13,829 nucleotides of DNA from the UHGV virus genome UHGV-0094592. One strand, written 5' to 3'. Below the pieces are notes generated by a model that ran no database searches, had not been told where the DNA came from, and was given only the letters and a program-made list of their open reading frames with translations. The position numbers were made by a program, and so were the translations under genes. Source of the DNA: a virus. Shown in pieces: positions 2,421-13,829 of this stretch; the stretch's first letter is position 1; every line of letters begins with the position of its first letter.

Positions 2421-2453
2421 GTAAGCGTCAACGGAGCACCGTATTGACGCTTA
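2421..2453. repeat. IS66-type terminal inverted-repeat-like sequence (GTAAGCGTCAA...TTGACGCTTAT), internally palindromic
   Basis: Plus strand reads GTAAGCGTCAACGGAGCACCGTATTGACGCTTAT. IS66-family ends characteristically start GTAAGCG. It sits between the tnpC 3' fragment stop (2451-2453) and the tnpA start. Confidence 0.6.
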
Positions 2454-2636
2454 TTTATTGGTGAGTACTACGTTCCATGGCAGGAGTTCGCCAACTCGGT
2501 TGGAAGGCCATTCCGGCAGTACGCTCAGAATATGGCGCAGATACGCTTCCGGATCGATACCGTTCAGACGGCAGGTGCCGATCAGCCCGTACAGCAGTGC
2601 TCCACGCTCGCCGCCGTGATCGCTACCGAAGAACAC
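2451..2636 (-). pseudogene. Detached 3' fragment of an IS66 transposase (TnpC C-terminal 61 codons)
   Basis: Translation VFFGSDHGGERGALLYGLIGTCRLNGIDPEAYLRHILSVLPEWPSNRVGELLPWNVVLTNK is the C-terminal tail of IS66 TnpC. Its first residues (FFGSDHG) duplicate the last residues of the tnpC copy cut by the window edge. Homology stops abruptly near 2637. Confidence 0.85.
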
Positions 2637-2699
2637 GTAGATGATATGACCTTTATATACTCACTATAGCATTGGTGGGATATTCCAGAGGAGGTCATC

Positions 2700-2954
2700 A
2701 TGCATTCGGAAAATATTGCGGCTTACGTCGGGCTGGATGTGCATAAAGAAACGTTGGCGGTTGCTATTGCTGCACCTGAACGGCTTGGCGAAGTTCGTTA
2801 TTATGGTACGATTAACAACGAAGCCCAGGCTGTACGTCGATTATTTCAGAAATTGCAGGGACTTTACGGAAACATTCTTTCCTGCTATGAGGCTGGCCCC
2901 TGTGGTTTTGGGCTATATCATCAACTCACGATATTTATAATTAAATGCGCATAA
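2700..2954 (+). pseudogene. IS110-family transposase, N-terminal fragment (84 codons, truncated)
   Basis: MHSENIAAYVGLDVHKETLAVAIA...CYEAGPCGFGLYHQL carries the IS110-family N-terminal signatures (GxDxxK and CYEAxG). Strong RBS GGAGG 7 nt upstream. Full-length IS110-family transposases are several-fold longer as far as I recall, and this ORF ends after only 84 codons. Confidence 0.75.
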
Positions 2955-3005
2955 CTTATTGAATTTAACCAACAAACATCGCTGCAAATAACGTTAAAAA
3001 TCGCA

Positions 3006-3030
3006 AATTAACTACACCATTAACTACACC
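3006..3030. repeat. Island-boundary direct repeat, left copy (AATTAACTACACCATTAACTACACC; tandem 12-mer ATTAACTACACC x2); candidate att/arm site
   Basis: Perfect 25/25 identity to 13622-13646; imperfect homology continues about 45 bp to the right of both copies. Confidence 0.75.
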
Positions 3031-3521
3031 GTTCGGTGCACTGTATGCAACAATGCGGAACAAATAGACACAAGCGACGGGCTATACCGTTATCATTTTC
3101 CGGCTATCCGCCATGAAGCTGGTGGATGATCACGGATAAACCGTTATGGAAGTCCCCATATCGGCATCATGCCCACCAGCGAGATTAGTTATCTGGTTGC
3201 TGATGGGAGGCTGACGAACCTCGATGCTAGGGTGCGCAAAACTAGTGAGACCTTTTTTCTCTGCAACAGGCCCATAATTCGCGTTTTCTTTGTCTGCCGT
3301 AAGGTGGGGGATTTTTGGCGGATCCAGCAATGGCGCGGATTTTGTGATTTTTTATAGATAGACCTCATCTATCAATCCCGTGCACACCTTCCCAAAAAAA
3401 GTTTTCGAACCTGCGGCGATGTGAACAAGGGTAGGCGGGCGGTCCCATAAGCAATGAGGTGTAGGGATTTCTATCCCCCTGGGGGTATTAAACACCACCC
3501 GATTTAAATACCGTCTTTTTT

Positions 3522-3556
3522 GTCACTGTGTGTCACTCTCCGTCACGGTATGTCAC
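3522..3556. promoter_or_regulatory. Four helically phased GTCAC repeats (10-bp period); candidate protein-binding array
   Basis: GTCAC at 3522, 3532, 3542 and 3552, immediately downstream of the 93-aa gene stop (3563). Confidence 0.45.
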
Positions 3557-3562
3557 CACAAG

Positions 3563-3844
3563 TTAACGTCGTAACCGTTCCGGCTTCTTCCAGTGGTAAG
3601 TAATTTTTTCTTTCTCTTGGTACATCTGCACGCGGCGACGGTACGACAACATCTCCAGAACTCTGGCGCGTATGTTGCGCATATCCACGCCGTTAAGCTC
3701 GATACCGTCACGGCGCATCACCTCAGCAACAACACGCACATAATTTTCAGCGGTCACGCTGTCCGGCTGCGTGGCCTGTTCGTCAGCCTGCTGGCTGATT
3801 CCGGTAACGCGGCGGATTAATCGCAGTATTTCGGCTTCTGTCAT
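3563..3844 (-). CDS. Hypothetical protein (93 aa) downstream of TerS; possible packaging accessory factor
   Basis: ORF with RBS GGGGG 4 nt upstream of the ATG (3844); basic C-terminus. No recognisable family from sequence alone. Confidence 0.6.
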   Translation of the reverse strand: MTEAEILRLIRRVTGISQQADEQATQPDSVTAENYVRVVAEVMRRDGIELNGVDMRNIRARVLEMLSYRRRVQMYQEKEKITYHWKKPERLRR

Positions 3845-3917
3845 TGTGCCCCCATCGCTCTGATAGCCTGGTGTCGTCAGGTCCTTCCTGGAATTATGGC
3901 CCGTTACGGGGCGGCGG

Positions 3918-4460
3918 TTACTCGCCTTTGTTCTGTAGCAACTTCTCAGGCGCGCTTCCGGTAGTTTCCATCAGGTAATCAGCCAGTATCTGTGGCAGGT
4001 TTTCGTCAAGTCTTGCACATGCGTTACATGCTTTGGCTATTTCCCTTTTTAGTTCATCCAGCATATACGGCCTTATATCGGGAAAGCGCCTTTGCATTGT
4101 GAGCGGGAGGCTGTCCATGATTGATGAAATCTGACTCGCTAGTTTTGAAATCGCGTAGATGCAAAACTTTGTATCAATCACCTCGCCGCGTTCGCGCTCG
4201 TTTTTAAGTTCCTGCGCTTCCGCCTGTGCTGTCAGCAATCTGATTCTTACGCGTAAAAGTTCATCATCATCAATCTCGCCTTTGTCGTTTGTAAGCTGGT
4301 TAATTGCATTGTTAACCCTATTGTCTATCACGCTAGCAACATCATAAAACGCCTCACGGCCTTTACGCTCAACGGGAGTTACTCCCCACTTGTCGAACGC
4401 TGTCGCACTTACGCGGCAGCTTTGCGCCATAGTTTTTTTGTTCATCAGGTGCGATTTCAT
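3918..4460 (-). CDS. Terminase small subunit, phage lambda Nu1-like
   Basis: Translation (...RLLTAQAEAQELKNERERGEVIDTKFCIYAISKLASQISSIMDSLPLTMQRRFPD...) matches lambda gpNu1 as I recall it (RLTRAQADAQELKNARDSAEVVETAFCTFVLSRIAGEIASILDGLPLSVQRRFPE). ORF track start is GTG 4472; ATG at 4460 has RBS GGGGA and ATG at 4445 aligns with the Nu1 N-terminus (M..NKK). Confidence 0.85.
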   Translation of the reverse strand: MKSHLMNKKTMAQSCRVSATAFDKWGVTPVERKGREAFYDVASVIDNRVNNAINQLTNDKGEIDDDELLRVRIRLLTAQAEAQELKNERERGEVIDTKFCIYAISKLASQISSIMDSLPLTMQRRFPDIRPYMLDELKREIAKACNACARLDENLPQILADYLMETTGSAPEKLLQNKGE

Positions 4461-4472
4461 CAATATCCCCAC

Positions 4473-4637
4473 TTAGTTAAGGTTTCAGGTTGGTGTGTTG
4501 GTGTTATCTTTCCCTTTTTATTCATAGAGATAGAGCGAAAAACAAAACCACCACCACCAACCCGAAAAGGCTCATAAATAGCGAAAATCCGCAAGGTCGC
4601 CGCCCCGTAACGGGTCCATATGCCGGAAAGGACCCGT
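4473..4637 (-). other. Lambda-type cos site (cosQ-cosN-cosB) with exact cosN 12-mer GGGCGGCGACCT (minus strand, 4605..4594)
   Basis: Minus strand reads ...TTTACGGGTCCTTTCCGG-CATATGGACCCGTTACG-GGGCGGCGACCT-TGCGGATTTTCGCTATTTATGAGCCTTTTCGGG. Lambda right and left ends read ...TTTACGGGTCCTTTCCGGTGATCCGACAGGTTACG / GGGCGGCGACCTCGCGGGTTTTCGCTATTTATGAAAATTTTCCGG. It lies directly upstream of the Nu1-like gene, as in lambda. Confidence 0.85.
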
Positions 4638-4660
4638 AAAAAAAGCCGGATTTCTCCGGC
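4638..4660 (-). terminator. Rho-independent terminator after the capsid operon (stem GCCGGA/TCCGGC, 7-T run on minus strand)
   Basis: Hairpin 4645-4660 followed on the minus strand by TTTTTTT (4644..4638), 6 bp downstream of the 137-aa gene stop. Confidence 0.7.
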
Positions 4661-4666
4661 CTTATG

Positions 4667-5080
4667 TCAGATGGTTTTCAGTATGCGATCGACGTCGCCT
4701 TCATCGCCCTGGTTTCTGCCGTCGTATGCCATGCCGGGTGATACGGCTTTCGGGCTGTGCATGTCCATAAAGTTTTCAAAGGCTGCGGTAAGCTCCGGCG
4801 CAACCTTCGGGCGCTCCTGCTCTATGGTCATGTTCAGGATTTCACGAGCATTATCGACGCTAATACATGGCACGTTTGCCATTGCACGTAACAGCGGCTG
4901 ATAGTCGTTATGTTCATGAAGCGCCATAATCGCATCAGCGCGCGGCTTGTCCTGCTCTTCCAGTTTGTTGAGTTGATATACGGCCTCGTAGGTTGATAAA
5001 CCTCTGTCAGCCATTGCCCGCGCTTCTGCTTTAAATTTACTCGCCAGCGGTAGCGCCATGATGCTTTCATTCGTTGCCAT
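4667..5080 (-). CDS. Hypothetical capsid-module protein (137 aa), acidic; possible scaffold or size-determination factor
   Basis: ORF with RBS AGGGGAA 3 nt upstream of ATG 5080; sits between the gpD-like gene and the terminator/cos. No confident family assignment. Confidence 0.6.
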   Translation of the reverse strand: MATNESIMALPLASKFKAEARAMADRGLSTYEAVYQLNKLEEQDKPRADAIMALHEHNDYQPLLRAMANVPCISVDNAREILNMTIEQERPKVAPELTAAFENFMDMHSPKAVSPGMAYDGRNQGDEGDVDRILKTI

Positions 5081-5092
5081 CGTTTCCCCTGC

Positions 5093-5428
5093 TTATCGCG
5101 CCAGCGGCTGAACGGATACGCCAGAACCCGCAAAGGCGGCGCATTTTTTCGCGTCAGTGTCGGCGCTCTCAGGCCAGTTTACGGCGGCGATATTAAATAT
5201 CCCCGTCTTGTAACACTGTGCTGATTTCTGCTTTGACGTGTCCACGGGGTACGAGGTCAGATAAACAGCCTTCCCAGATTCCTGACCATCCCACGGCTTA
5301 AACTCGCCATTGTCCGCCAGCATCAGCGGGGTAAATTCCTGAATAACGCCAGCATCAGCGGCAAAATGTACCAGCGTCGTGGATACCTGCTGACTGCCTG
5401 CAAATAACTCAATGTATGGAGTGTCCAT
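5093..5428 (-). CDS. Head decoration protein, lambda gpD-like
   Basis: ...FTPLMLADNGEFKPWDGQ...YKTGIFNIAAVNWPESADTDAKKCAAFAGSGVSV versus recalled lambda gpD ...MTPLMLDTSSRKLVAWDGT...[44 protein letters not shown] 4 nt upstream of the ATG. Confidence 0.8.
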   Translation of the reverse strand: MDTPYIELFAGSQQVSTTLVHFAADAGVIQEFTPLMLADNGEFKPWDGQESGKAVYLTSYPVDTSKQKSAQCYKTGIFNIAAVNWPESADTDAKKCAAFAGSGVSVQPLAR

Positions 5429-5439
5429 AGAATCCCCCG

Positions 5440-6495
5440 TTAAGCAATTTTGACGGTAACAAATTTGCGAATATCTGCCGGAACCGGCTGCGGTGCGCTG
5501 TGCGTCTGCACGTACTCAATCGCCGGATCGCCGTCCTCAATCCAGTTTTTCGGGTAGTACATGTTTTGCGTTGCGCCTGTTCTTACCGCTTCCTGATCCA
5601 TAATCGCACCATAGGCCACCAGCCCTTTGTTGTTGGTGTTGCCCAGGACCAGCAAATCAGGATCAAGGAAATATTTTTCTGTGCCGTCGCTGTCAGTGTA
5701 TTTGCCGGAATAGACGATAAGGGCCAGATCACCAAGATAGCCTTTAAAGCTCACCACTTCGCCCAGGTTTTTACATGCCAGCTCTGCGGCGGATTCTGAA
5801 CCACGGGAGAGATCGTACAGTTCACGGAATTTTTTAAAGCTGCGTAACATGCGCCATACATCAACGCCCATAATCATGACGTTTGCGGGGCAACCTGCCT
5901 GATCTGCGTATAGCTCAATGTCATAGATTGGGTCGTGTATGTCTTTGTCCTGCTCTGACCATTTTTTACCGTCGGCCTGCTCTATGATGTTTTTTTCCGG
6001 TATCTTCCAGTCGATTTCATAGCGCTCTATGCCTTCGCCCTCAATGATGTTTTTTCCGGTCGTTATCGCATTCACCGCCAGCCATTCCACGCGCGCTTTA
6101 ATGGCGTTTATCTGGCGGCGCATGTTGCCAGTAATCAGGCGCATACGGCGGTAGGTAGGGTCGTTAAGCTGTGCCGGATCTTCTCCAGCCATGCGCATTA
6201 TTGTTTTTAATGGATCGATTTCGTGTTTTGGCTTCATGTAGCCAGGGCGAATAATGCTGGTTTCGTACCCTTTATCGCGCTGAACCTGGCTACCAACCAT
6301 AGGCGAACAAAACGCCGACATAGTGACTTCTTCAATATCCAGGTTATCTAACATGATGTCCTGTGTGTTGAATGTCGCCACGTTCGGGAAAAACAGCGCG
6401 GTAAACAGCGGACTAAATTTAAATTCCGCAATATCCTCGCGATTCAGGTACGCGAAAAGCTGGTGTGTGTTAAGTGCCATTGCTTTGACTGCCAT
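5440..6495 (-). CDS. Major capsid protein, lambda gpE-like (351 aa)
   Basis: Conserved blocks EFKFSPLF, RPGYMKPKHEIDP, EDPAQLNDPTYRRMRLI, WSEQDKDIHDP, VSFKGYLGDLALIVYSGKYTD, LLVLGNTNNKGLVAYGAIMD and YPKNWIEDGDPAIE align with recalled lambda gpE (KFKFDPLF, TPGYVKPKHEVNP, EDPQNLADPAYRRRRII, WSKRDKSTYDP, VSYKGMYGDVAIVVYSGQYVE, MVLGNTQARGLRTYGCIQD, YPKNWVTTGDPAREF). [11 protein letters not shown]; start overlaps the upstream stop (TAATG). Confidence 0.9.
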   Translation of the reverse strand: MAVKAMALNTHQLFAYLNREDIAEFKFSPLFTALFFPNVATFNTQDIMLDNLDIEEVTMSAFCSPMVGSQVQRDKGYETSIIRPGYMKPKHEIDPLKTIMRMAGEDPAQLNDPTYRRMRLITGNMRRQINAIKARVEWLAVNAITTGKNIIEGEGIERYEIDWKIPEKNIIEQADGKKWSEQDKDIHDPIYDIELYADQAGCPANVMIMGVDVWRMLRSFKKFRELYDLSRGSESAAELACKNLGEVVSFKGYLGDLALIVYSGKYTDSDGTEKYFLDPDLLVLGNTNNKGLVAYGAIMDQEAVRTGATQNMYYPKNWIEDGDPAIEYVQTHSAPQPVPADIRKFVTVKIA

Positions 6496-6701
6496 TATTC
6501 ACCCCCATGAGTCTGATTTATGCCCAGCGCCGCGCGTAAATAGGAGCGTACCTGCCAGCCTGTTGACGGCTCAACCATCGCCAGCGGATCAAGTCCTGCC
6601 GCAATGCCTGCTTTTACGTTCTGCTGGTGGCGTTCCTTGAGCGCCTTCACGATGTCGGGGCTTATGTACACCGAAACACCGCCTTTTTTCTCTTCAGCCA
6701 T
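6495..6701 (-). CDS. Hypothetical small protein (68 aa), first gene of the capsid operon, translationally coupled to the major capsid gene
   Basis: RBS AAGAGGAA 7 nt upstream of ATG 6701; its stop overlaps the capsid ATG. Confidence 0.6.
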   Translation of the reverse strand: MAEEKKGGVSVYISPDIVKALKERHQQNVKAGIAAGLDPLAMVEPSTGWQVRSYLRAALGINQTHGGE

Positions 6702-6729
6702 AGTAAGAAATTCCTCTTTGACTTAAAAA

Positions 6730-6786
6730 ATTATAACTGGATGTTCATCCAGCTCTGATTATAATCAGGATTGCATTTTGTGCAAT
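6730..6786 (-). promoter_or_regulatory. Candidate capsid-operon promoter (perfect -10 TATAAT on minus strand, weak -35) with three adjacent palindromes upstream
   Basis: Minus-strand TATAAT at 6735..6730. Palindromes TGGATGttCATCCA (6738-6751), CTGATTATAATCAG (6755-6768) and ATTGCAttttgTGCAAT (6770-6786) lie immediately upstream in minus sense. Confidence 0.5.
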
Positions 6787-6866
6787 GATATTGAGTTGTG
6801 TTGCAAATTATGAAATGATGATCCCGCTCATGTGTGTCAGTGCACCAAAAAGCCTCATATGCAAAA

Positions 6867-6903
6867 GCCCGATAAGCCACCTCTGACCTTATCGGGCTTT
6901 TTT
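6867..6903 (+). terminator. Strong hairpin with a T-run on both strands (plus-strand T6); bidirectional terminator-like element
   Basis: Stem GCCCGATAAG/CTTATCGGGC (10 bp, 11-nt loop) followed by TTTTTT on plus and TTTT on minus. Confidence 0.55.
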
Positions 6904-7078
6904 ATCTGCCTGCAAAGATGTCGAACGAAAATTAACCACAACCATCATCTTTTTTGCATCAAAACAATTAAAAACAATAAATTACGCTCATGATGATGAT
7001 GACGATAAAATCACAAAAATGCGCTTTTTTCCGCGCCTCCCGCCCCGTGTTCAGGCCCACCCCGCCAGGAGGACCCGT

Positions 7079-7100
7079 AAAAAAGCCGGATTGCTCCGGC
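7079..7100 (-). terminator. Rho-independent terminator after ssb; sequence paralog of the cosQ-side terminator at 4638-4660
   Basis: Stem GCCGGA/TCCGGC with loop, followed on minus strand by TTTTTT; 17 bp downstream of the ssb stop. About 35 bp are near-identical to 4631-4660. Confidence 0.7.
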
Positions 7101-7116
7101 TTCTGTCACTCGTCGC

Positions 7117-7539
7117 TTAAAACGGTATGTTATCCCCGTACGGATCATCATTCCCCGCCTGTTGTTTTGCCCTGTTCAGCGCGTCAGTAGCCTGGCCCTG
7201 TTGACCTTTTTTGCCGCCCAGTCGCGCCGTTCGCGCACTGATTACACTGTCTGCGATAACCTGCCAGCCCTGCCGCGTTTCTCCGTTCTGCCCAGTCCAC
7301 TGGCTGATCTGCATGTTACCCGCCACGCTCAGGAGTTCACCCTTGCGGTGCCTTTCCAGTGCTTCGGCCTGTCTGCCAAATGCCAGGACGGATAACCACA
7401 TCGTCGCCGTTCCGTCATCTGCCTGGCTGCACGGAAGGGGGACCGCCATACGCGCCAGCGTCATCGGTGTGCCCTTGCTGGTCTGTTTTACCTGCGGGTC
7501 GTCCACCAGCCGCCCGTAAGCTGCTATCTGTGCTGTCAT
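7117..7539 (-). CDS. ssb: Single-stranded DNA-binding protein (SSB-like OB-fold with C-terminal ...DNIPF tail)
   Basis: 140 aa. N-terminal OB-fold pattern resembles E. coli SSB; the protein ends ...NDDPYGDNIPF, an acidic IPF tail like the DDDIPF tail of E. coli SSB. Start overlaps the upstream gene stop (ATGA). Confidence 0.8.
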   Translation of the reverse strand: MTAQIAAYGRLVDDPQVKQTSKGTPMTLARMAVPLPCSQADDGTATMWLSVLAFGRQAEALERHRKGELLSVAGNMQISQWTGQNGETRQGWQVIADSVISARTARLGGKKGQQGQATDALNRAKQQAGNDDPYGDNIPF

Positions 7540-7787
7540 GATTCCACCTCTCCGGTTTTAACGTTGATGGTTGTTACCTGTTCCGCTTCGGCAATCTCCC
7601 GCTCTGTCAGCGTGGCAAAATTTGCCGCCGTCGTGGTCATGAATGCGCTTATCAGTTCGGGATGTGCTTTCGCGTATCCTTCCCCCGCGTGGCGGTCTAT
7701 CGTTCTGATTGCCACCTTTAAAGCGTGCTCTGTCATGTCTAACGCTTTATATTTTGGCGCTGTCTTATCTCTGGTTTTTCTGGTCAT
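7536..7787 (-). CDS. Hypothetical protein (83 aa), translationally coupled to ssb
   Basis: ORF immediately downstream of the iteron region; stop overlaps the ssb start. Confidence 0.55.
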   Translation of the reverse strand: MTRKTRDKTAPKYKALDMTEHALKVAIRTIDRHAGEGYAKAHPELISAFMTTTAANFATLTEREIAEAEQVTTINVKTGEVES

Positions 7788-7796
7788 TCCTCACTG

Positions 7797-7990
7797 CTCC
7801 CCACTTTTACTACCCACTTTTTGAAATTACCCAACGTCTCCCCACTTCTTTTTTTTGTGATTCTAACGTGATGTTTTTCAATGTGTTTTTTATTCCCCAC
7901 TTTTTGGGGTATATACAGGTGGGAAAGTGGGGAATCACGTTTCAATTTTGTTAAATTCCCCACACTCCCCACTTTTACTACCCACTTTTT
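7797..7990. repeat. Putative origin of replication: iteron array (CCCCACTTTT family) flanking an AT-rich core
   Basis: 23-bp direct repeat CTCCCCACTTTTACTACCCACTTTT at 7797-7821 and 7965-7989. Additional TCCCCACTT copies at 7837-7848, 7893-7905, 7957-7966 and an inverted copy at 7924-7934. Located directly 3' of the helicase gene. Confidence 0.7.
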
Positions 7991-9404
7991 ACAGTGGGCG
8001 CACGTCATCACCGTCAATAGCAATAACGCCATCACCTTCCAGCTTGTACAGCCAGCGCCGGAAGTGTTTCATCTCATACCCCAGCTTTTTCATATCATCG
8101 CGCAACAACGGAATAGTGCATTTATCTCCGCGCTGTGTGCGTGAACGGATACAGCCCCATAGCGCGGCATGATTCTCCGTCTTGTTCCCGGCTTCCTCGA
8201 TGCGCTCCAGTTCAACGGGTGGGCGCGGCTTATCCACAACAACCAGCGACGTGATTAACTCCCCGTCAGTGTCGGTAAAAAGCTCCACCACACGTAAATC
8301 GTATGCGGCCTCTTTCAGTTCCTCCGCGTCCTTCATTTTTGTGCAGGAGATAACCAGGGCTTCACTGTCTGCACCTTCACGGCGAATACGGTATTCAGCG
8401 TCCAGAGATGCACGAAATGCACTGGAACCACGCGCCCCCTTTGTTTCATCCTTGCCGGAATGGTGAACCACCAGCACCGTGGCCCCTGTGCGGCGTTTCA
8501 GTTCGTCACATCCACGGATAAACGCCCCCATATCCCGCGCGTCATTTTCATCATTACCGCCAAAGCAACGCGCCAGCGTATCAAGAATAATCATGCGTAC
8601 CGGTTTACCCGTTTCCCGTTCAACCTGGCGGGAAGCGATGACCATTTCATCAACATCAAGCGGGACTGCCGGAAAAATCGGGCGGTTTACCAGGTACAGA
8701 TTTTCCACCCGTTCATCATTAACGATTTCCCATGCCTTGATACGGCGGGGGACACCAATGCCACCTTCACCGACAACATACATCACCGAACCATGCGCCA
8801 CCCTGCGGCCTCCCCAGTGACGGCCAGTGGCAACATGACACGCCCAGGAACACGCGAGGAACGATTTATAGGAACCGCTCGCGCCGTATGTGCTGCACAA
8901 TGAATTAGCCGGAATCACGCCCTTAACGACATAATCAAGCTGTGTGTCGTACCCTGCAGATCCAATGCTCATTGGTAGCGTGGTTTTTCGCTGGCTGTAT
9001 TGCTCGTCAGTAAGTATTTCCCCGCGCTCTGCCTGTTCGCGGATCCGTTGCAGGTAGTCGTGCCAGTTCTCCAGCTTCTGGCTGTGCATTCCATCAGGGT
9101 AATAATTCGCATCCCGTACACCTGCCGCCGCCAGCTTTTGCCCGATAGCATTAATATTTGACGGCTTGATGTGGCCTGCCTTGTACAGCCGGACACAATA
9201 GCGACCATCGTCGATAATTTTCAGGTCTGCCAGTTCGTCAAGCTGGCTGTCTCCCAGCCATACAGGCGGGACGTTATCACCAGCAAGTCGCCCGTCCTGT
9301 TCCTGCCACTGTTTCGCGTGCGCCCAGGCATCACTACCCGCAAAAATAATGACTTCGGTCATTTTGTCGTGTGGCTGTTTTTTTAAGTTCGGTGCCAGTT
9401 TCAT
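7989..9404 (-). CDS. Replication helicase, RepA/AAA_25-like P-loop NTPase with an N-terminal domain of unknown function
   Basis: 471 aa. P-loop-like YGASGSYKSF, Walker B-like RMIILDTLARCFGG and the VLVVHHSGKD motif typical of RepA/AAA_25-type helicases. RBS AGGGG. Start overlaps the upstream stop (ATGA). Confidence 0.8.
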   Translation of the reverse strand: MKLAPNLKKQPHDKMTEVIIFAGSDAWAHAKQWQEQDGRLAGDNVPPVWLGDSQLDELADLKIIDDGRYCVRLYKAGHIKPSNINAIGQKLAAAGVRDANYYPDGMHSQKLENWHDYLQRIREQAERGEILTDEQYSQRKTTLPMSIGSAGYDTQLDYVVKGVIPANSLCSTYGASGSYKSFLACSWACHVATGRHWGGRRVAHGSVMYVVGEGGIGVPRRIKAWEIVNDERVENLYLVNRPIFPAVPLDVDEMVIASRQVERETGKPVRMIILDTLARCFGGNDENDARDMGAFIRGCDELKRRTGATVLVVHHSGKDETKGARGSSAFRASLDAEYRIRREGADSEALVISCTKMKDAEELKEAAYDLRVVELFTDTDGELITSLVVVDKPRPPVELERIEEAGNKTENHAALWGCIRSRTQRGDKCTIPLLRDDMKKLGYEMKHFRRWLYKLEGDGVIAIDGDDVRPL

Positions 9405-9700
9405 TTTTTGCCCCTGAATGCGTTAATCATGTTTTTCATTTTCTGAATATTTGCCCGTGCCTTTGCGTTGCTGGTGGGCTGTTTGCGTGGTGTGGCCTGT
9501 ATCAGTGAAAAATCACGCCGGAACTGATAAGCAGGCATCACGCAGTCATAGCCGTACCCATCACGGCGGTAAGTAACGCACCGCCCCGCCACGCTTTTAA
9601 TCGTTACCGTGCCACCGTAGTTATCCCGGAAAATATCGCCGGGGCGGATTTCAGGCCGAGGGAGACCACTGGCAGTAAAGCCAGAATTTTTCTGTTTCAT
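9401..9700 (-). CDS. Hypothetical protein (99 aa), basic
   Basis: ORF with GGAG upstream; operon member immediately 5' of the helicase gene. Confidence 0.55.
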   Translation of the reverse strand: MKQKNSGFTASGLPRPEIRPGDIFRDNYGGTVTIKSVAGRCVTYRRDGYGYDCVMPAYQFRRDFSLIQATPRKQPTSNAKARANIQKMKNMINAFRGKK

Positions 9701-9706
9701 GTTTTT

Positions 9707-9925
9707 TTACTCCAGAGGCAGATTTTTAGCGGCGAGTTCAATATCAGATGTCAGAGAAACCTGTGTATTTGCCAGGTCTAACAACAAAGAAATAAGAATT
9801 TCCTCTCTGCTATCGGATTCATCGGTGCTAAGGCTGTTCATCCACATATTGACGACTTCCCTGATTTTTTTCGCAGAGTGCAGGGCTTCAAATGCCAGGT
9901 CTTCAATATCATGTTTATTTCGCAT
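9707..9925 (-). CDS. Hypothetical protein (72 aa from internal ATG; ORF track lists 9707..9991)
   Basis: ATG at 9925 has RBS GGGGG and avoids overlap with the upstream gene; the longer track ORF would overlap it by 77 nt. Confidence 0.5.
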   Translation of the reverse strand: MRNKHDIEDLAFEALHSAKKIREVVNMWMNSLSTDESDSREEILISLLLDLANTQVSLTSDIELAAKNLPLE

Positions 9926-10127
9926 AATCGCCCCCGCGTAACTGGTCTGCACTAACACCCGATTTAGTGAGCATTTCAGAAAATCCCGCAAGAGTGCTGA
10001 TAAATTCGTTTTCCATTAAACGGCACTGGCATTTAACCCGGCCTTTTTCCAGATACACCAGTACGCGCCCCGTATAATCTGACGGCACATTCAGCACTAC
10101 AGATAAGTGCGCTTCATTATTATTCAT
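9915..10127 (-). CDS. Hypothetical protein (70 aa)
   Basis: Strong RBS GGAGGTG 7 nt upstream of ATG 10127. Confidence 0.55.
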   Translation of the reverse strand: MNNNEAHLSVVLNVPSDYTGRVLVYLEKGRVKCQCRLMENEFISTLAGFSEMLTKSGVSADQLRGGDYAK

Positions 10128-10356
10128 GGCTCACCACCTCCATATCAGCCATGATAATTTTGCTGGCCTCATTCAGTGCCATATCAGCACTAAGTTGCAT
10201 TACAGCCAGTGAATGAGGAACGAAAGCCCCGGCATATTCTGTTTCACTGGTAGCGTGCTTATGCGCCCTGTCCGCGATAACAGAAATATCAATCAGCGCA
10301 TCAATCAGTGTTTTGATTGCTTCGGCGGCTGCGTCCGGACGGGTGTTATTGCACAT
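10120..10356 (-). CDS. Hypothetical protein (78 aa)
   Basis: RBS GGGGG upstream of ATG 10356; 8-nt overlap with the downstream gene. Confidence 0.55.
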   Translation of the reverse strand: MCNNTRPDAAAEAIKTLIDALIDISVIADRAHKHATSETEYAGAFVPHSLAVMQLSADMALNEASKIIMADMEVVSHE

Positions 10357-10552
10357 GGTGCACCCCCTGACGAATACGGGCGGCGAATACCATCACGCAG
10401 CCAGCCGGTGATTGCTGACGGGCTTCCTGTTCGCTGGTGGCCTCAATGGTAATCACGCGCGGTTGTGCCGTACTCAGGGCGATAAAACGCCAGATGTATT
10501 TATTCAGGTTGTGCGAGTCCCGCCCTTGCGGGTGTATGGTATGATTTCTCAT
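10346..10552 (-). CDS. Hypothetical protein (68 aa), first gene of the replication-module operon (ORF track lists a TTG-start version 10346..10642)
   Basis: ATG at 10552 is preceded by GAGG. The longer version would extend into the operator/promoter region. Confidence 0.5.
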   Translation of the reverse strand: MRNHTIHPQGRDSHNLNKYIWRFIALSTAQPRVITIEATSEQEARQQSPAGCVMVFAARIRQGVHHVQ

Positions 10553-10571
10553 AGCAGCCTCGATAATCTTG

Positions 10572-11762
10572 CTATCGTTGGTGGTTAGACGCCCCGTATG
10601 TGTTTCCGGCACTGCGGGGCGTTGCTCTTTGTATTTCAACAATTCTTTTGGTGTGTTTCATGTTATGAGCGCATGAAACACACGTCAAGGCTTTTTGTAT
10701 TTCTTTTTTTGTGTATACTGAAACACACCGATGATTAGGAGTTTCAGAAATGGCAACGGCTAACAAAAACGCAAAATCACAACTGACAACTGTCAGAGTC
10801 CCACTAGATGTTATGCAAGGGATGGAATCCGTTAAGCTGGACGGCGAAAGCAATGCCGGATTTATCGTAACCGCCATGCGCGGAGAAATAGCCCGCCGCC
10901 AAGCAGAAGGCAGCGGAGAAAATCCCCTTGTGTCGTCACTGGATGCCCTGGCTAAGGTCGAACAAATCGGCATCAAAGCAGCGGAAGAAATCGGGCAGCT
11001 TGTCACCGTTGCACGCGAAGAACTCCAGCGTCGCAAGACCAAAGAACCAGAGTAATCACCATCAGCGCCGTGGTGTAAGGTATTACGGCGCATTGCTATG
11101 CAGGACAACACAATGACCGATAAAGAATTGACCAAAACATTATCACCGGCACGGAAAAGACGGCGCAGAAAGATAGAGCATGAATCAGAAAGATTCGCGC
11201 CATGTGCTTTTGCTCTTGAGAAATTCCTTAAAGAGCACAGGAAAAAGCTCTCGTTGCAAACCTTGGAACGAACCAAATCTGACTGATCACATTGCCCACC
11301 AGCCGCAAATGTGGCATTGTTGGTGATGCTCATGCGTTGGGGATAACGTGTAGCTTGTGTCGAGGGGCCACCGTAGCGGGTGGCCTTTGTTTTGCCTGTT
11401 ATCCGGCAATTGTGGCGCTTCGCCACACGGTTGATATAATCCCACTGCTCAGATTCATTTTTTGCGCAGTAGGTTAATTGTTCACAAAGGCGCTCCGGCA
11501 ACGGGGCGCTTTTTGTTTTTATTAGTTTGTAGAAACCTGACTCAGAGATAATGCTCATATTCTGATTGCCGTCAGGGGTGTAAGTTAAATTTACTCCCTT
11601 TTTATCATCAAACATCTGCAACGCTCTGGCGTTAACAATATTGGTTTCACTCCCGCCAGTAAGGCCGGAAATAACCGGAATAATTTCGGCAAAATTTTGC
11701 AGATTCTGTTTTTCAGGACGAACGAAGCCCCGCCCTTGTTCGGGAGAATATCCAGTATTCAT
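10572..11762 (-). CDS. Long open frame; only the N-terminal ~100 codons (from ATG 11762) look protein-like, with a possible Bro-N/KilA-N-like motif. The rest is probably non-coding or a pseudogene remnant
   Basis: N-terminus contains IISESGFYKLIKTKS, resembling a Bro-N-type motif as I recall it. The C-terminal two thirds are Ser/Cys/Arg-rich and antisense to two plus-strand ORFs with good RBSs, and span two plus-oriented terminators. Confidence 0.3.
   Translation of the reverse strand: MNTGYSPEQGRGFVRPEKQNLQNFAEIIPVISGLTGGSETNIVNARALQMFDDKKGVNLTYTPDGNQNMSIISESGFYKLIKTKSAPLPERLCEQLTYCAKNESEQWDYINRVAKRHNCRITGKTKATRYGGPSTQATRYPQRMSITNNATFAAGGQCDQSDLVRSKVCNESFFLCSLRNFSRAKAHGANLSDSCSIFLRRLFRAGDNVLVNSLSVIVLSCIAMRRNTLHHGADGDYSGSLVLRRWSSSRATVTSCPISSAALMPICSTLARASSDDTRGFSPLPSAWRRAISPRMAVTINPALLSPSSLTDSIPCITSSGTLTVVSCDFAFLLAVAISETPNHRCVSVYTKKEIQKALTCVSCAHNMKHTKRIVEIQRATPRSAGNTYGASNHQR
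10651..10688 (-). promoter_or_regulatory. Sigma70-like promoter for the minus-strand operon (TTGACG-17-TAACAT) fully overlapped by a 12-bp inverted-repeat operator
   Basis: Minus strand -35 TTGACG (10688..10683) and -10 TAACAT (10665..10660). Operator GTGTGTTTCATG-9bp-CATGAAACACAC spans 10651-10683. Related GAAACACA sites lie at 10720-10728 and in the hairpin loop at 10596-10627. Confidence 0.6.
10750..11055 (+). CDS. Hypothetical regulator-like protein (101 aa), divergently transcribed from the island operons; candidate repressor
   Basis: Strong RBS TAGGAG 8 nt upstream. Plausible -10 TATACT (10714-10719) with an operator half-site at the predicted start. Balanced composition; N-terminal beta-strand plus helix pattern (TTVRVPLDVMQGMESVKL) reminiscent of ribbon-helix-helix proteins. 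Confidence 0.6.
   Translation: MATANKNAKSQLTTVRVPLDVMQGMESVKLDGESNAGFIVTAMRGEIARRQAEGSGENPLVSSLDALAKVEQIGIKAAEEIGQLVTVAREELQRRKTKEPE
11113..11286 (+). CDS. Hypothetical small basic protein (57 aa; ORF track lists 11098..11286)
   Basis: ATG at 11113 has AGGA 7 nt upstream; very basic (RKRRRRK) N-terminal segment. Confidence 0.45.
   Translation: MTDKELTKTLSPARKRRRRKIEHESERFAPCAFALEKFLKEHRKKLSLQTLERTKSD
11366..11393 (+). terminator. Rho-independent terminator (stem GGCCACC/GGTGGCC, then TTTGTTTT) for the plus-strand unit
   Basis: Perfect 7-bp stem with 6-nt loop and a T-rich tail on the plus strand. Confidence 0.6.
11490..11520 (+). terminator. Second plus-strand rho-independent terminator (stem GCGCTCCG/CGGGGCGC, GCAA tetraloop, TTTTTGTTTTT)
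   Basis: 8-bp stem with one G-U pair, GNRA-type loop, and 11-nt T-rich tail. Confidence 0.65.
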
Positions 11763-11814
11763 GGTTAGATCTCTGTATTAGTGGATGGGTGGCGGCTGTG
11801 TGCCGCCAGCCTGA

Positions 11815-12003
11815 TTAGTGAACTGCCTCGCAGCTTTCCTTCCATGCCAGAACTTCGGATAAAGACCAGCCAACGGAACGACCGCCGAGCTTACGCCGTG
11901 ATGGGAATTGTCCGGTTTTTTCCAGGCGGTACCGACATGAACGGCTCAGGCCTGTAAGTTGCTGACATTCTTTTTCACGTATAAAGCGATCTGTGCTTAA
12001 CAC
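11815..12003 (-). CDS. alpA: AlpA-family (prophage CP4-57-type) transcriptional regulator, 62 aa from GTG start
   Basis: Motif ...CQQLTGLSRSCRYRLEKTGQFPSRRKLGGRSVGWSLSEVLAWKESC is the AlpA/Vis-type HTH signature. GTG at 12003 is preceded by AGGGGGA. ORF track lists a longer 11815..12171 version. Confidence 0.8.
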   Translation of the reverse strand: MLSTDRFIREKECQQLTGLSRSCRYRLEKTGQFPSRRKLGGRSVGWSLSEVLAWKESCEAVH

Positions 12004-12288
12004 AATTCCCCCTTTGATATTTCTTAAAGAGTTATTTGGTGTCCTATTGTGTTGTGGTGCGTCGGATTGTGTCAGGGTGTTTATGGAATGGCAAACACTG
12101 GCGGCGGTCATTTTACAGAAGTGTGGTAATGAGAATAAAAACTCTTTTAATTCATTGTGGTGCAAAGGCATAAAATTCTGTTTTTACGCCTTTTTTACAT
12201 GTTTTTAAGAGTGATTCGCCAATGTACAAAAAGCCAGTAAAACGACTGAAAATCAACTTTTTAGGGTGTCAGTCAGATGTTAATCAAG

Positions 12289-12346
12289 TTTGTTCCAGAT
12301 TGTTCGCCGTTGTTCGTCGTGGTGTCTCGTTGTTTCACGTTGTGTC
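12289..12346. promoter_or_regulatory. Cluster of TTGTTCG-like direct repeats between int and alpA; candidate regulator binding sites
   Basis: TGTTCC 12291, TTGTTCG 12300, TTGTTCG 12310 (10-bp spacing), TTGTTTC 12330, TTGTGTC 12340. Confidence 0.4.
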
Positions 12347-12370
12347 AGTTCTAAAAAATCGCAAAAAAAA

Positions 12371-13621
12371 TTATATTTCTCTGGCTATTGGCAGTGTGGT
12401 TACGTTTTTGTGAGTACCCGCCAGTATCTCTAACCGCTCTGTCCACATGTCCAGCGCATTACGTTTCGCATCGAGATAACGGGAGTGGTTATAGACTCGC
12501 TGCATCCCTGGCATCTGGTGAGCGGTGAGTTGTTCGACAATATGCGGATCCACGCCTAAATCGTTCAGCATCGTGGTAAACGTGCGCCGTATATCGTGTA
12601 GTGACCAGTGCGGATGGTTTAATTTTTTGTGCATGAATCTGCCGTATTGCGACACACTGGCTTCCTGTTTCAGTTCCCCGAGTAATAGCCCTGTGTGTCT
12701 GTTCTGCTCCACCAGCTGCGTGACGAACGGTAAAATGCTTTCCGGTATTGGCCTGAATATGGCGACCTTCGTTTTGCTGTGCTCTTTCGGTACTGTCCAG
12801 AGCATTTCCTTAAAATCCCACTCCCTGATCTCCGATAATCTCAGTTCTCCGGTTCGGCAGCCGAACACAATCAGGAGGCGGATTAGTGCGCTGTAGTAGG
12901 GCGGGAATATTTTTTTATCCAGCGCCTGTAATAATTCGCCAAGTTCTTTGTTGCTCAGCACGCGTTCGCTTATGCCTGGTTTTTTGCCAACGTCCACCAC
13001 GTTAAGATCATCCAGAACGTTACTGACTGCGTAGCGACGTTTACGGCAGAACTTAAGCGCCTGTTTACACGCCTGCATCATGTGACCAGACGTTACAGGG
13101 GATTTTTTGCGTATCCGGTCAAAACAGGCCAGCCAGTGACGTAACTCGCATTTATCCAGTGGCATATTGCCAATATGCTGTATGACGTGATTATTCAGGC
13201 GGCTTTTCAGGCATACGTAATCGACACGGTTTTCCTTTACGTGCATTTCCAGCCAGTAGCTGATCGCATCACCCACCGTTACCGGCTTTAGTGCTTCCTG
13301 TATGGAGTAATTAAGCTCATGGCGTGGATTTTTTCCTTCTGCCAGCCATGCGCGACACTGTGCCGCTTTTTCCCTGGCTGCTTTCAGGCTCAGATCAGGA
13401 TAATTTCCCAGCTTCAGGCGTTCCGGTGATACCTGGCGTCCAGCTCCTGCTCTGTAGGTGAAATACCAGGTTAATAAGCCGCTGGTGGAATGCCTGACGC
13501 TCAGGTTTCCACCGTCATTAAGAAATGTGGTTTTTGGGGCTGGTGTGCCGTTGATTTTTCTTAGCTGTGTATCGCTCAGTTTGTTAAGTGCTCTGCTCAT
13601 AATTTTGAATCCGGTCATCAC
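12371..13621 (-). CDS. int: Tyrosine recombinase / integrase, P4-type
   Basis: 416-codon ORF. N-terminal region LSDTQLRKI...YPDLSLKAAREKAAQ resembles P4-family integrase N-termini. C-terminal catalytic motifs include HDIRRTF (HxxR) and a tyrosine within RVYNHSRYLD. ORF-track start is GTG 13621; in-frame ATGs at 13618 and 13600 are alternative starts. Confidence 0.9.
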   Translation of the reverse strand: MMTGFKIMSRALNKLSDTQLRKINGTPAPKTTFLNDGGNLSVRHSTSGLLTWYFTYRAGAGRQVSPERLKLGNYPDLSLKAAREKAAQCRAWLAEGKNPRHELNYSIQEALKPVTVGDAISYWLEMHVKENRVDYVCLKSRLNNHVIQHIGNMPLDKCELRHWLACFDRIRKKSPVTSGHMMQACKQALKFCRKRRYAVSNVLDDLNVVDVGKKPGISERVLSNKELGELLQALDKKIFPPYYSALIRLLIVFGCRTGELRLSEIREWDFKEMLWTVPKEHSKTKVAIFRPIPESILPFVTQLVEQNRHTGLLLGELKQEASVSQYGRFMHKKLNHPHWSLHDIRRTFTTMLNDLGVDPHIVEQLTAHQMPGMQRVYNHSRYLDAKRNALDMWTERLEILAGTHKNVTTLPIAREI

Positions 13622-13646
13622 AATTAACTACACCATTAACTACACC
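13622..13646. repeat. Island-boundary direct repeat, right copy (AATTAACTACACCATTAACTACACC), immediately upstream of int
   Basis: Identical to 3006-3030. Confidence 0.75.
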
Positions 13647-13829
13647 GATCATTGCACAAGGGGGTACAACGTGGAACAAGTTGGAACAAGAAAAATTGCA
13701 ATGAGCTTAAAAATCAAAAACATAATGAACAACGTGGCACATTATGAAACAGCAAAAAACACTAATTTATAAAATCACAGCGATGAATATAAAATGCCAG
13801 GTTATTGCCCCTTCCCGCATACCAAAATC

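Follow-up and report, generated by a model that had tools for sequence, protein, structure and literature searches.

The DNA examined here is a stretch of 13,829 nucleotides (nt), UHGV virus genome UHGV-0094592, referred to below at its full length as the window, which by its sequence can be assigned to a catalogued Escherichia coli satellite, the published reference Gram-negative phage-inducible chromosomal island (PICI) EcCIDI14. Its late module lies on the minus strand and comprises, in order of transcription, p68, a major capsid protein (MCP) similar to lambda gpE, a decoration protein (Dec) similar to lambda gpD, p137, a cos site, a small terminase (TerS) of the Nu1 family and p93 (Table 1). 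The first four genes form a shell block that spans 6701–4667. They are closely packed: the p68 stop and the MCP start overlap by one base (TAATG), and spacers of 11 nt and 12 nt separate MCP from Dec and Dec from p137, respectively, in agreement with a prediction made earlier from the sequence alone (the original prediction) that the flanking genes of 68 and 137 amino acids (aa) are coupled or tightly linked to the capsid and decoration pair. The new point of the present analysis is that the neighbouring 137-aa protein, until now an 'unknown', is by homology a putative shortened scaffold of the lambda type.

The identity of the two shell proteins is established by several comparisons. The 351-aa MCP matches the Pfam family Phage_cap_E over its full length (170.9 bits against a cutoff of 22.9). 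Its alignment with lambda gpE extends over 328 aa at 43% identity (E 4e-93), and its identity to the E protein of PhiR12_2_star is 47.5%; the lambda gpE structure 7VI9 is matched with E 5.7e-82. A homologue with a crystal structure, PDB entry 3BQW, deposited as 'putative capsid protein of prophage', aligns at about 95% identity (1.6e-228), and the window MCP is 94.6% identical to the CFT073 protein. The 111-aa Dec scores 64.7 bits against Pfam HDPD (cutoff 29.1), is 37% identical to lambda gpD (E 7e-14), and finds its best PDB match in the head decoration protein 1TD0 (6e-13), with lambda gpD at 1e-9. The earlier assignment of both proteins to the gpE and gpD families is upheld by these matches, and so is the observation that E precedes D, which is the reverse of the order in lambda (D 5747–6079, E 6135–7160), Gifsy-1 and PhiR12_2_star. 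The island order, E-D-Nu3', corresponds to no contiguous piece of any lambdoid head operon. A tblastn search of the window with the head proteins of three lambdoid phages returned no large terminase (TerL), gpW, portal, protease domain, FI or FII (E <= 1), and NCBIfam gave no match for any module protein. The original prediction, which had described portal, protease and scaffold machinery as absent, is therefore correct with respect to portal and protease, and fails with respect to the scaffold, p137 being of the Nu3 type.

The predicted scaffolding protein p137

Several search methods connect p137 with the C-terminal, scaffolding part of lambdoid head proteases. In the profile phrog_53 ('head maturation protease') it aligns to positions 494–567 of 583 (E 1.5e-9). 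By blastp, residues 49–131 of p137 are 36% identical to residues 416–493 of the 501-residue gpC of PhiR12_2_star (E 7e-10), whose record is annotated as protease C with Nu3 scaffolding domain, and residues 411–480 of the 498-residue gpC of Gifsy-1 are matched with E 3e-7. When 2.3 Gb of phage DNA were searched with tblastn, the match had E 8e-5, and profile-profile alignment of the p137 family with Nu3-like C-termini (hhalign) gave a probability of 97.9% and E 5e-13. In a phmmer search of 1.8 billion proteins, p137 matches a 195-aa Nu3-like protein (E 2.3e-4), which is taken to be the nested Nu3 equivalent because it shares 51% identity with the C-terminal stretch of PhiR12_2_star gpC (last 200 residues); only 8 cluster representatives were found in this search, so the p137 family is narrow. 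The gene that occupies the p137 slot in the P393-F10 island encodes a protein 29% identical to p137 that itself matches gpC residues 362–485 (E 2e-5). Pairwise comparison of p137 with lambda gpC/Nu3 is not significant, and the link becomes visible only with gpC proteins of the 21 type and with profiles.

The internal architecture of p137 agrees with this relationship. Nu3-like proteins contain three repeats of about 36 aa followed by the motif F-x-x-F-M-x-x-H-S-P; p137 contains two repeats of about 36 aa, the same tail motif and a conserved, satellite-specific C-terminus, DRILKTI. The score observed for the internal duplication was reached in 2 of 5000 shuffles. Natural p137 variants of 93 aa (P0030, P0031) lack exactly one of the two repeats, with the junction ...KAEARAMANVPC..., and are consistent with recombination between the repeats and a modular scaffold length. 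The AF2 model of p137 is all-helical and of low confidence (pLDDT 63.7), with no neighbours in BFVD. Some NCBI records name p137 homologues 'phage head-tail connector protein', and no relevant paper that connects PICIs with Nu3 was found in the literature searched.

The p137 gene stands alone downstream of Dec and is not nested in a protease gene, and a protease domain is absent from the window; for these reasons p137 is considered to derive from Nu3 without being a canonical nested Nu3. It is best described as a putative truncated, stand-alone derivative of a Nu3-type internal scaffolding protein. Given this homology, the view that the island has no scaffold does not hold, and with p137 as a scaffold derivative the block would amount to a coherent set of coat, scaffold and cement. 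The original prediction had also offered the small partner proteins as candidate scaffold or size-determination factors; for p137 the scaffold role fits, although the label 'unknown' no longer does.

The second partner, p68, belongs to a PHROG of unknown function, is found only in Enterobacteriaceae and has no counterpart in phage records. Its AlphaFold model (pLDDT 75.6) shows a conserved VSVYISP segment followed by two helices, and no structural neighbour was found for it. Profile comparison with ribbon-helix-helix families gave sub-threshold, weak matches, and p68 may be a ribbon-helix-helix-like DNA binder. A relationship to lambda gpW, also of 68 aa, was considered and rejected as the two do not align, and p68 does not resemble FI, FII or any of the other phage head proteins either. 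Upstream of p68 there are two strong hairpins with T-runs (6856–6908 and 6735–6754) and a weak sigma-70-like site (6785–6814), so that transcription of the capsid block may be governed separately, by a dedicated promoter and by terminator or antiterminator control. In the sister island EcCICFT073 the region upstream of the p68 homologue is occupied by a gene for a PerC-family regulator.

Table 1 Features of the late module, island ends and backbone in the window
Feature	Position	Strand	Basis or remark
att repeat, int-distal island end	3006–3031	.	exact match to published EcCIDI14 att sequence
p93, conserved last module gene	3563–3844	minus	phrog_1561 (function unknown), 1e-55
TerS, Nu1-family small terminase, 180 aa from ATG	3918–4460	minus	Pfam Phage_Nu1 1.3e-23
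terminator-like hairpin, cosQ-like box and cosN	4594–4660	minus	between p137 and terS
p137 (c1501 homologue), putative stand-alone shortened Nu3-type scaffold	4667–5080	minus	homology to gpC C-terminus
Dec, lambda gpD / phage 21 SHP family (c1500 homologue), 111 aa	5093–5428	minus	Pfam HDPD 1e-17
MCP, lambda gpE family (c1499 homologue), 351 aa	5440–6495	minus	Pfam Phage_cap_E 4.9e-50
p68 (c1498 homologue), 68 aa	6495–6701	minus	open reading frame; translationally coupled to capsid gene
iteron-like direct repeats, candidate replication origin	7797–7991		just 3' of RepA-type helicase gene, before 83-aa gene
AlpA-family regulator next to int	11815–12171 (open reading frame)		Pfam Phage_AlpA 1.3e-17
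integrase (int)	12371–13621	minus	Pfam Phage_integrase and Arm-DNA-bind_3 domains
att repeat adjoining int	13622–13647	.	exact 26-nt direct repeat

Satellite evolution and packaging genes

The four-gene block occurs intact at about 91% nt identity or more in 598 of 5,426 complete E. coli genomes (about 11%), and there are also more divergent versions, at about 65% identity. All copies sampled belong to PICIs or to helper-embedded satellites, the chromosomal PICIs occupying several att sites. Among 50,697 phage records, no MCP match exceeds 47.6% identity, while satellites in Kluyvera, Cedecea, Kosakonia and Superficieibacter encode MCPs of 54–56% identity and keep the E-then-D order; the scan of genome contigs for MCP gave 4 loci, which show the gene order in other genera and do not constitute a census. 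The low identity of the phage matches, the presence of satellite kin across genera and the non-phage gene order together argue for long independent evolution in satellites and not for a recent capture. The original prediction was to be given up if the nearest kin proved to be ordinary prophage copies accompanied by portal and protease genes; the nearest kin are satellites. A published survey of Gram-negative PICIs recorded a capsid gene in 21 of 29 reference islands.

All six module genes are under purifying selection, as judged from pairwise dN/dS values across seven islands: 0.11–0.21 for MCP, 0.03–0.10 for Dec, 0.25–0.40 for p137, about 0.2–0.4 for p68, about 0.17 for TerS and 0.12–0.2 for p93, the last of which is present in 7/7 islands compared. 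No broken open reading frame was found among the module genes of the seven islands. Furthermore, MCP (63%), Dec (51%) and the scaffold (29%) of the P393-F10 island have diverged together in aa identity whereas p93 (88%) is conserved, and the scaffold has retained the repeat and the tail motif of Nu3 together with a conserved extreme C-terminus of its own. Both observations indicate that coat, cement and scaffold genes form a matched set.

In E. coli, Cedecea and Kosakonia, related satellites (L013, coordinates 5833–7224 and 9565–10353, L015 and L017) interrupt the gpE gene of a prophage near codon 80. Every one of them brings an E-then-D pair of its own, with 55% identity to the window MCP. 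In L013 a helix-turn-helix protein replaces the Nu3-like gene, and there is no p68.

Between p137 and terS, the cosN sequence GGGCGGCGACCT at 4594–4605 is exactly that of lambda (lambda cosQ and cosN consensus from the supplement of PMC6092414). TerS aligns with lambda Nu1 along its full length at 37% identity, and its C-terminal 110 aa are 51% identical to the Nu1 of PhiR12_2_star, which is of the 21 type; the C-terminal part of lambda Nu1 is the TerL-binding region (PMC6739421). MCP, Dec and p137 are likewise all nearer to the 21/Gifsy/R12 type than to lambda. From the nearness of these three proteins and of the TerS C-terminus to the 21 type we conclude that a lambdoid phage whose head module is of the phage-21/PhiR12_2_star type is a more probable natural helper than lambda.

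EcCIDI14, O157 strain 9234, FORC_028, MS20654 and ATCC 25922 all have a full-length TerS of the Nu1 type in the slot that follows cos. EcCICFT073 has the unrelated RppA there (L002 11198–11632), despite more than 91% identity in the four-gene block upstream. The alternation of TerS and RppA in the post-cos slot is a modular swap of the packaging-specificity gene. The possibility that TerS itself is an Rpp protein was rejected, since it gives no alignment to the 144-aa RppA of the EcCICFT073 slot (E <= 100).

Two further cos-related copies are present in the window. A hairpin with a cosQ-like box at 7040–7105, just 3' of ssb, duplicates 4629–4660 (direct repeats D6 and D11, 95–100% identical) and is degenerate; direct repeats derived from cos thereby enclose the capsid block and its upstream region, an arrangement that suggests that recombination at cos has added or removed the block. 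Directly downstream of terS, at 3880–3916, there is a partial copy of cosQ/cosN in inverted orientation (I1, 81% complementary to 4598–4634), probably the counterpart of the second cos site described in EcCICFT073.

Role of the shell genes

Shell genes in this satellite family are not new. EcCICFT073 carries c1498–c1501 at 93.9% nt identity to the block of the window; in the supplement of the 2018 study the products of c1498 and c1501 have lengths of 68 aa and 137 aa, respectively, and its text names c1499 a putative capsid protein and c1500 a head decoration protein (PMC6092414). The capsid and decoration genes were described and deleted in that study, and the feature singled out in the original prediction has been in print for this island family since 2018.

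For EcCIDI14, a TerS-carrying relative of EcCICFT073, we propose that the module is an auxiliary shell kit of the satellite lineage, consisting of coat, scaffold and cement, and we consider the chances of this proposal to be evenly balanced. Gene and island identity, evolution in satellites, selection and cosN are observed, and the assembly steps are derived from homology. After induction of the helper, the island scaffold would nucleate the island coat protein on the helper portal, and gpD-like trimers would cement the expanded shell. The island TerS would bind the island cosB and recruit the helper's gpA-type TerL, and island concatemers would be packaged. The resulting shell may consist of satellite coat protein only or be mixed with helper coat protein. 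As to its size, the sister-island data would point to normal T=7-sized heads with about four island copies.

A number of results weigh against such a role. No particle has been reported to contain the island coat protein, and the models predicted for p68 and p137, of moderate and low confidence, respectively, have yielded no structural neighbours. Deletion of c1499 and c1500 in EcCICFT073 gave transfer of 3.8e3 and 8.7e3 transductants per ml, respectively, compared with 8e3 for the parent; neither deletion relieved the interference with lambda, and the authors report no phenotype for c1499 (PMC6092414). When genes downstream of ori were expressed singly, only c1503 (RppA) blocked lambda, and an island in which c1498–c1501 had been swapped for cas9 was still transduced by a phi80 helper (PMC10530653). 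Lambda, phi80 and the resident helper prophage can all transfer EcCICFT073 without the module. It might be objected that the 'c1501::tetA' marker disrupted the scaffold gene in the published tests. This objection fails, since the primer used for recombineering stops exactly at the end of the c1501 reading frame, on its stop codon (PMC6092414 supplement), and the module was thus intact.

One way to accommodate these null results is to regard TerS-type islands as a half-way stage in the transition from classical to capsid-forming PICIs (cf-PICIs), in which the island coat, shortened Nu3-like scaffold and gpD-like cement would form a satellite shell on a stolen portal of the natural helper, predicted to be a lambdoid phage with a 21-type head module, and the size of the shell is possibly altered. 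The null phenotype of EcCICFT073 would then reflect non-cognate helpers (lambda, phi80) and an island of the Rpp type. We regard this as unlikely. In the 2018 study, TerS-carrying E. coli PICIs were not mobilised by resident prophages (PMC6092414).

The original prediction went further and offered the building of smaller capsids as a plausible function of the module. On this reading, the island coat and the short scaffold would build small heads (T=4-like or less) for one or two island genomes, from which the helper genome is excluded. Precedents exist in SaPIbov5 Ccm, a satellite coat homologue located at the pentamer positions of small capsids with T=4 (PMC8569155), and in PmCI172, a Gram-negative PICI with a capsid homologue that has been published as making small heads. 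The two repeats in p137 compared with three in Nu3-like proteins represent a change that could alter shell curvature, and the published null results do not cover TerS-type islands with a working helper. However, EcCICFT073 DNA packaged with lambda was all phage-sized (PMC6092414) although the module was intact, the deletions of c1499 and c1500 were without effect, and the literature describes this PICI class as packaged in the form of concatemers in large capsids. The size arithmetic likewise does not favour small heads. A single island of 10.6 kb would fill about 50–65% of the scaled capacity of a lambda-type T=4 head, as estimated by (T/7)^1.5 scaling and from the P4/P2 genome ratio, and two copies would be borderline too large, whereas four copies (42.5 kb, 88% of lambda) fit a T=7 head. 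Redirection of capsid size is in our judgement quite unlikely, and for the sister island the proposal of smaller capsids is contradicted.

A similarly low probability is given to interference with the helper, in which the island coat and scaffold would co-assemble with their helper counterparts and poison or divert the heads of certain helpers. The scaffold has the Nu3 C-terminal motif in common with 21-like helpers and could compete for the helper coat, and PICIs typically carry several interference mechanisms. Against this, interference with lambda persists after deletion of c1499 or c1500, RppA is the only product that cut plaquing when expressed singly, and the island needs working heads to spread.

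The null phenotype of EcCICFT073 would also be expected if the block were a legacy or backup, i.e., if the E-D pair had been inherited from satellites that insert in the helper E gene, where it can stand in for the interrupted capsid gene, with little or no role left in chromosomal PICIs. The relatives located in the prophage E gene with their own E-D pair are in line with such an origin, and a backup function has been proposed (bioRxiv 10.1101/2022.07.18.500453). The strong purifying selection and intact open reading frames in chromosomal PICIs at several att sites are difficult to reconcile with loss of function, and with 41–47% identity to phage E proteins a simple substitution of the coat protein is doubtful; we rate this explanation as rather improbable, lower still than interference. 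That the coat and decoration proteins have a non-structural role, as decoys or triggers for capsid-sensing defences of the host or of a rival, or as regulators, receives indirect support from the lack of a structural phenotype. No module protein matches a PADLOC defence family, however, and a matched scaffold and cement beside the coat would be hard to explain without assembly, so that this role is hardly to be expected.

The proposal of an auxiliary shell kit can be set against known systems. With EcCICFT073 and the classical Gram-negative PICIs of E. coli, EcCIDI14 shares the layout of int, alpA, replication and late genes, the c1498–c1501 genes and the cos arrangement. It differs from EcCICFT073 in having a full-length Nu1-type TerS in place of RppA and a RepA-type helicase instead of a P4-type primase, and in lacking the PerC gene upstream of the module; in addition, induction, packaging and helper transfer have been demonstrated for EcCICFT073, whereas the TerS-type islands are without a known helper phage. 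Compared with the head modules of lambda and phage 21 (Nu1-A-W-B-C/Nu3-D-E-FI-FII), the island has homologues of gpE, gpD, Nu1 and the Nu3 C-terminus, 36–51% identical to their phage counterparts, together with the cosN of lambda. It has only four of the nine head genes, arranged as E-D-Nu3'-cos-Nu1 in contrast to the phage order cos-Nu1...Nu3-D-E, and its predicted scaffold is a stand-alone protein of 137 aa whereas the phage scaffold is nested in the protease gene.

The cf-PICIs, represented by EcCIEDL933 (bioRxiv 10.1101/2022.09.08.507074), resemble EcCIDI14 in having their own coat and small terminase and the same backbone family of int, alpA and rep; they add portal, protease, large terminase, HNH and connectors, none of which is encoded by EcCIDI14, and form their own small capsids. 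Helper-embedded satellites such as 11capE (bioRxiv 10.1101/2022.07.18.500453) belong to the E-then-D clade (55% aa identity) and have a similar overall layout, but they reside inside a prophage late gene and lack p68 and the Nu3-like gene (L013), whereas EcCIDI14 resides in an IS110 transposase gene. Ccm of SaPIbov5, CpmB of SaPI1 and Sid and Psu of P4 are functional analogues of the island shell genes, with no sequence relationship; these Staphylococcus aureus pathogenicity island (SaPI) and P4 systems make demonstrably small capsids, and EcCICFT073 makes none with lambda. CpmB, a short protein, serves as an alternative scaffold and is similar to the C-terminus of the helper scaffold, and P4 Psu is a decoration protein encoded by the satellite.

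Capsid and decoration genes are the commonest phage-derived late genes in Gram-negative PICIs, and the only published tests of these widespread genes gave no phenotype. The classification of the element is unchanged by the present analysis and no new kind of system is revealed; the useful additions are the predicted scaffold assignment of p137, the selection data and the prediction of the helper type.

Island boundaries, backbone and surroundings

The assignment to EcCIDI14 is based on the following comparisons. Positions 2421–13829 of the window match E. coli clone D i14 at 100% identity, and the att repeats delimit an island of 10,642 bp when integrated and 10,616 bp in circular form, in accord with the satellite of about 10.6 kb that had been proposed. 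EcCIDI14 is listed in Table S1 of Fillol-Salom et al. 2018 with its att sequence, CP002212 coordinates, size (10.6 kb) and target, an IS110 transposase (PMC6092414), and the listing is given again in a later preprint (bioRxiv 10.1101/2022.07.18.500453). As att sequence, coordinates, size and target all match, the window is identified with the catalogued satellite.

The backbone consists of integrase, AlpA, Icd-like and other small genes, DUF4222, a RepA-type helicase (AAA_25 match at 3e-44), iteron-like repeats and SSB, which is the layout of Gram-negative PICIs. The island falls within the 10–15 kb size range of PICIs and has no lysis, tail, portal or TerL genes; it has a terminal integrase with att repeats, AlpA next to int, and its own replication module, including ssb. 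The iteron-like repeats comprise 26 nt at 100% identity and 19-nt units at a spacing of 83–85 nt, and this candidate origin sits where PICI origins are reported.

The island splits a transposase gene of the IS110 family (ISEc45), fragments of which flank the att repeats at 2700–3031 and 13622–13829; the IS110 transposase as unusual target of EcCIDI14 is already in the literature. Rfam returned no RNA family in the window. Positions 1–2420 show no collinearity with clone D i14, nor with the 8 complete genomes that match best, and the surroundings, which include orfA of an IS3-type transposase (HTH_Tnp_1) at 1776–2387 on the minus strand, are a mosaic rich in insertion sequences. An ATG-initiated open reading frame of 396 aa on the minus strand at 10572–11762 is without RefSeq annotation and has no Pfam or PADLOC match. 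It overlaps a YlcI/YnfO-like gene on the other strand, and may be spurious or a missed gene of the variable regulatory zone.

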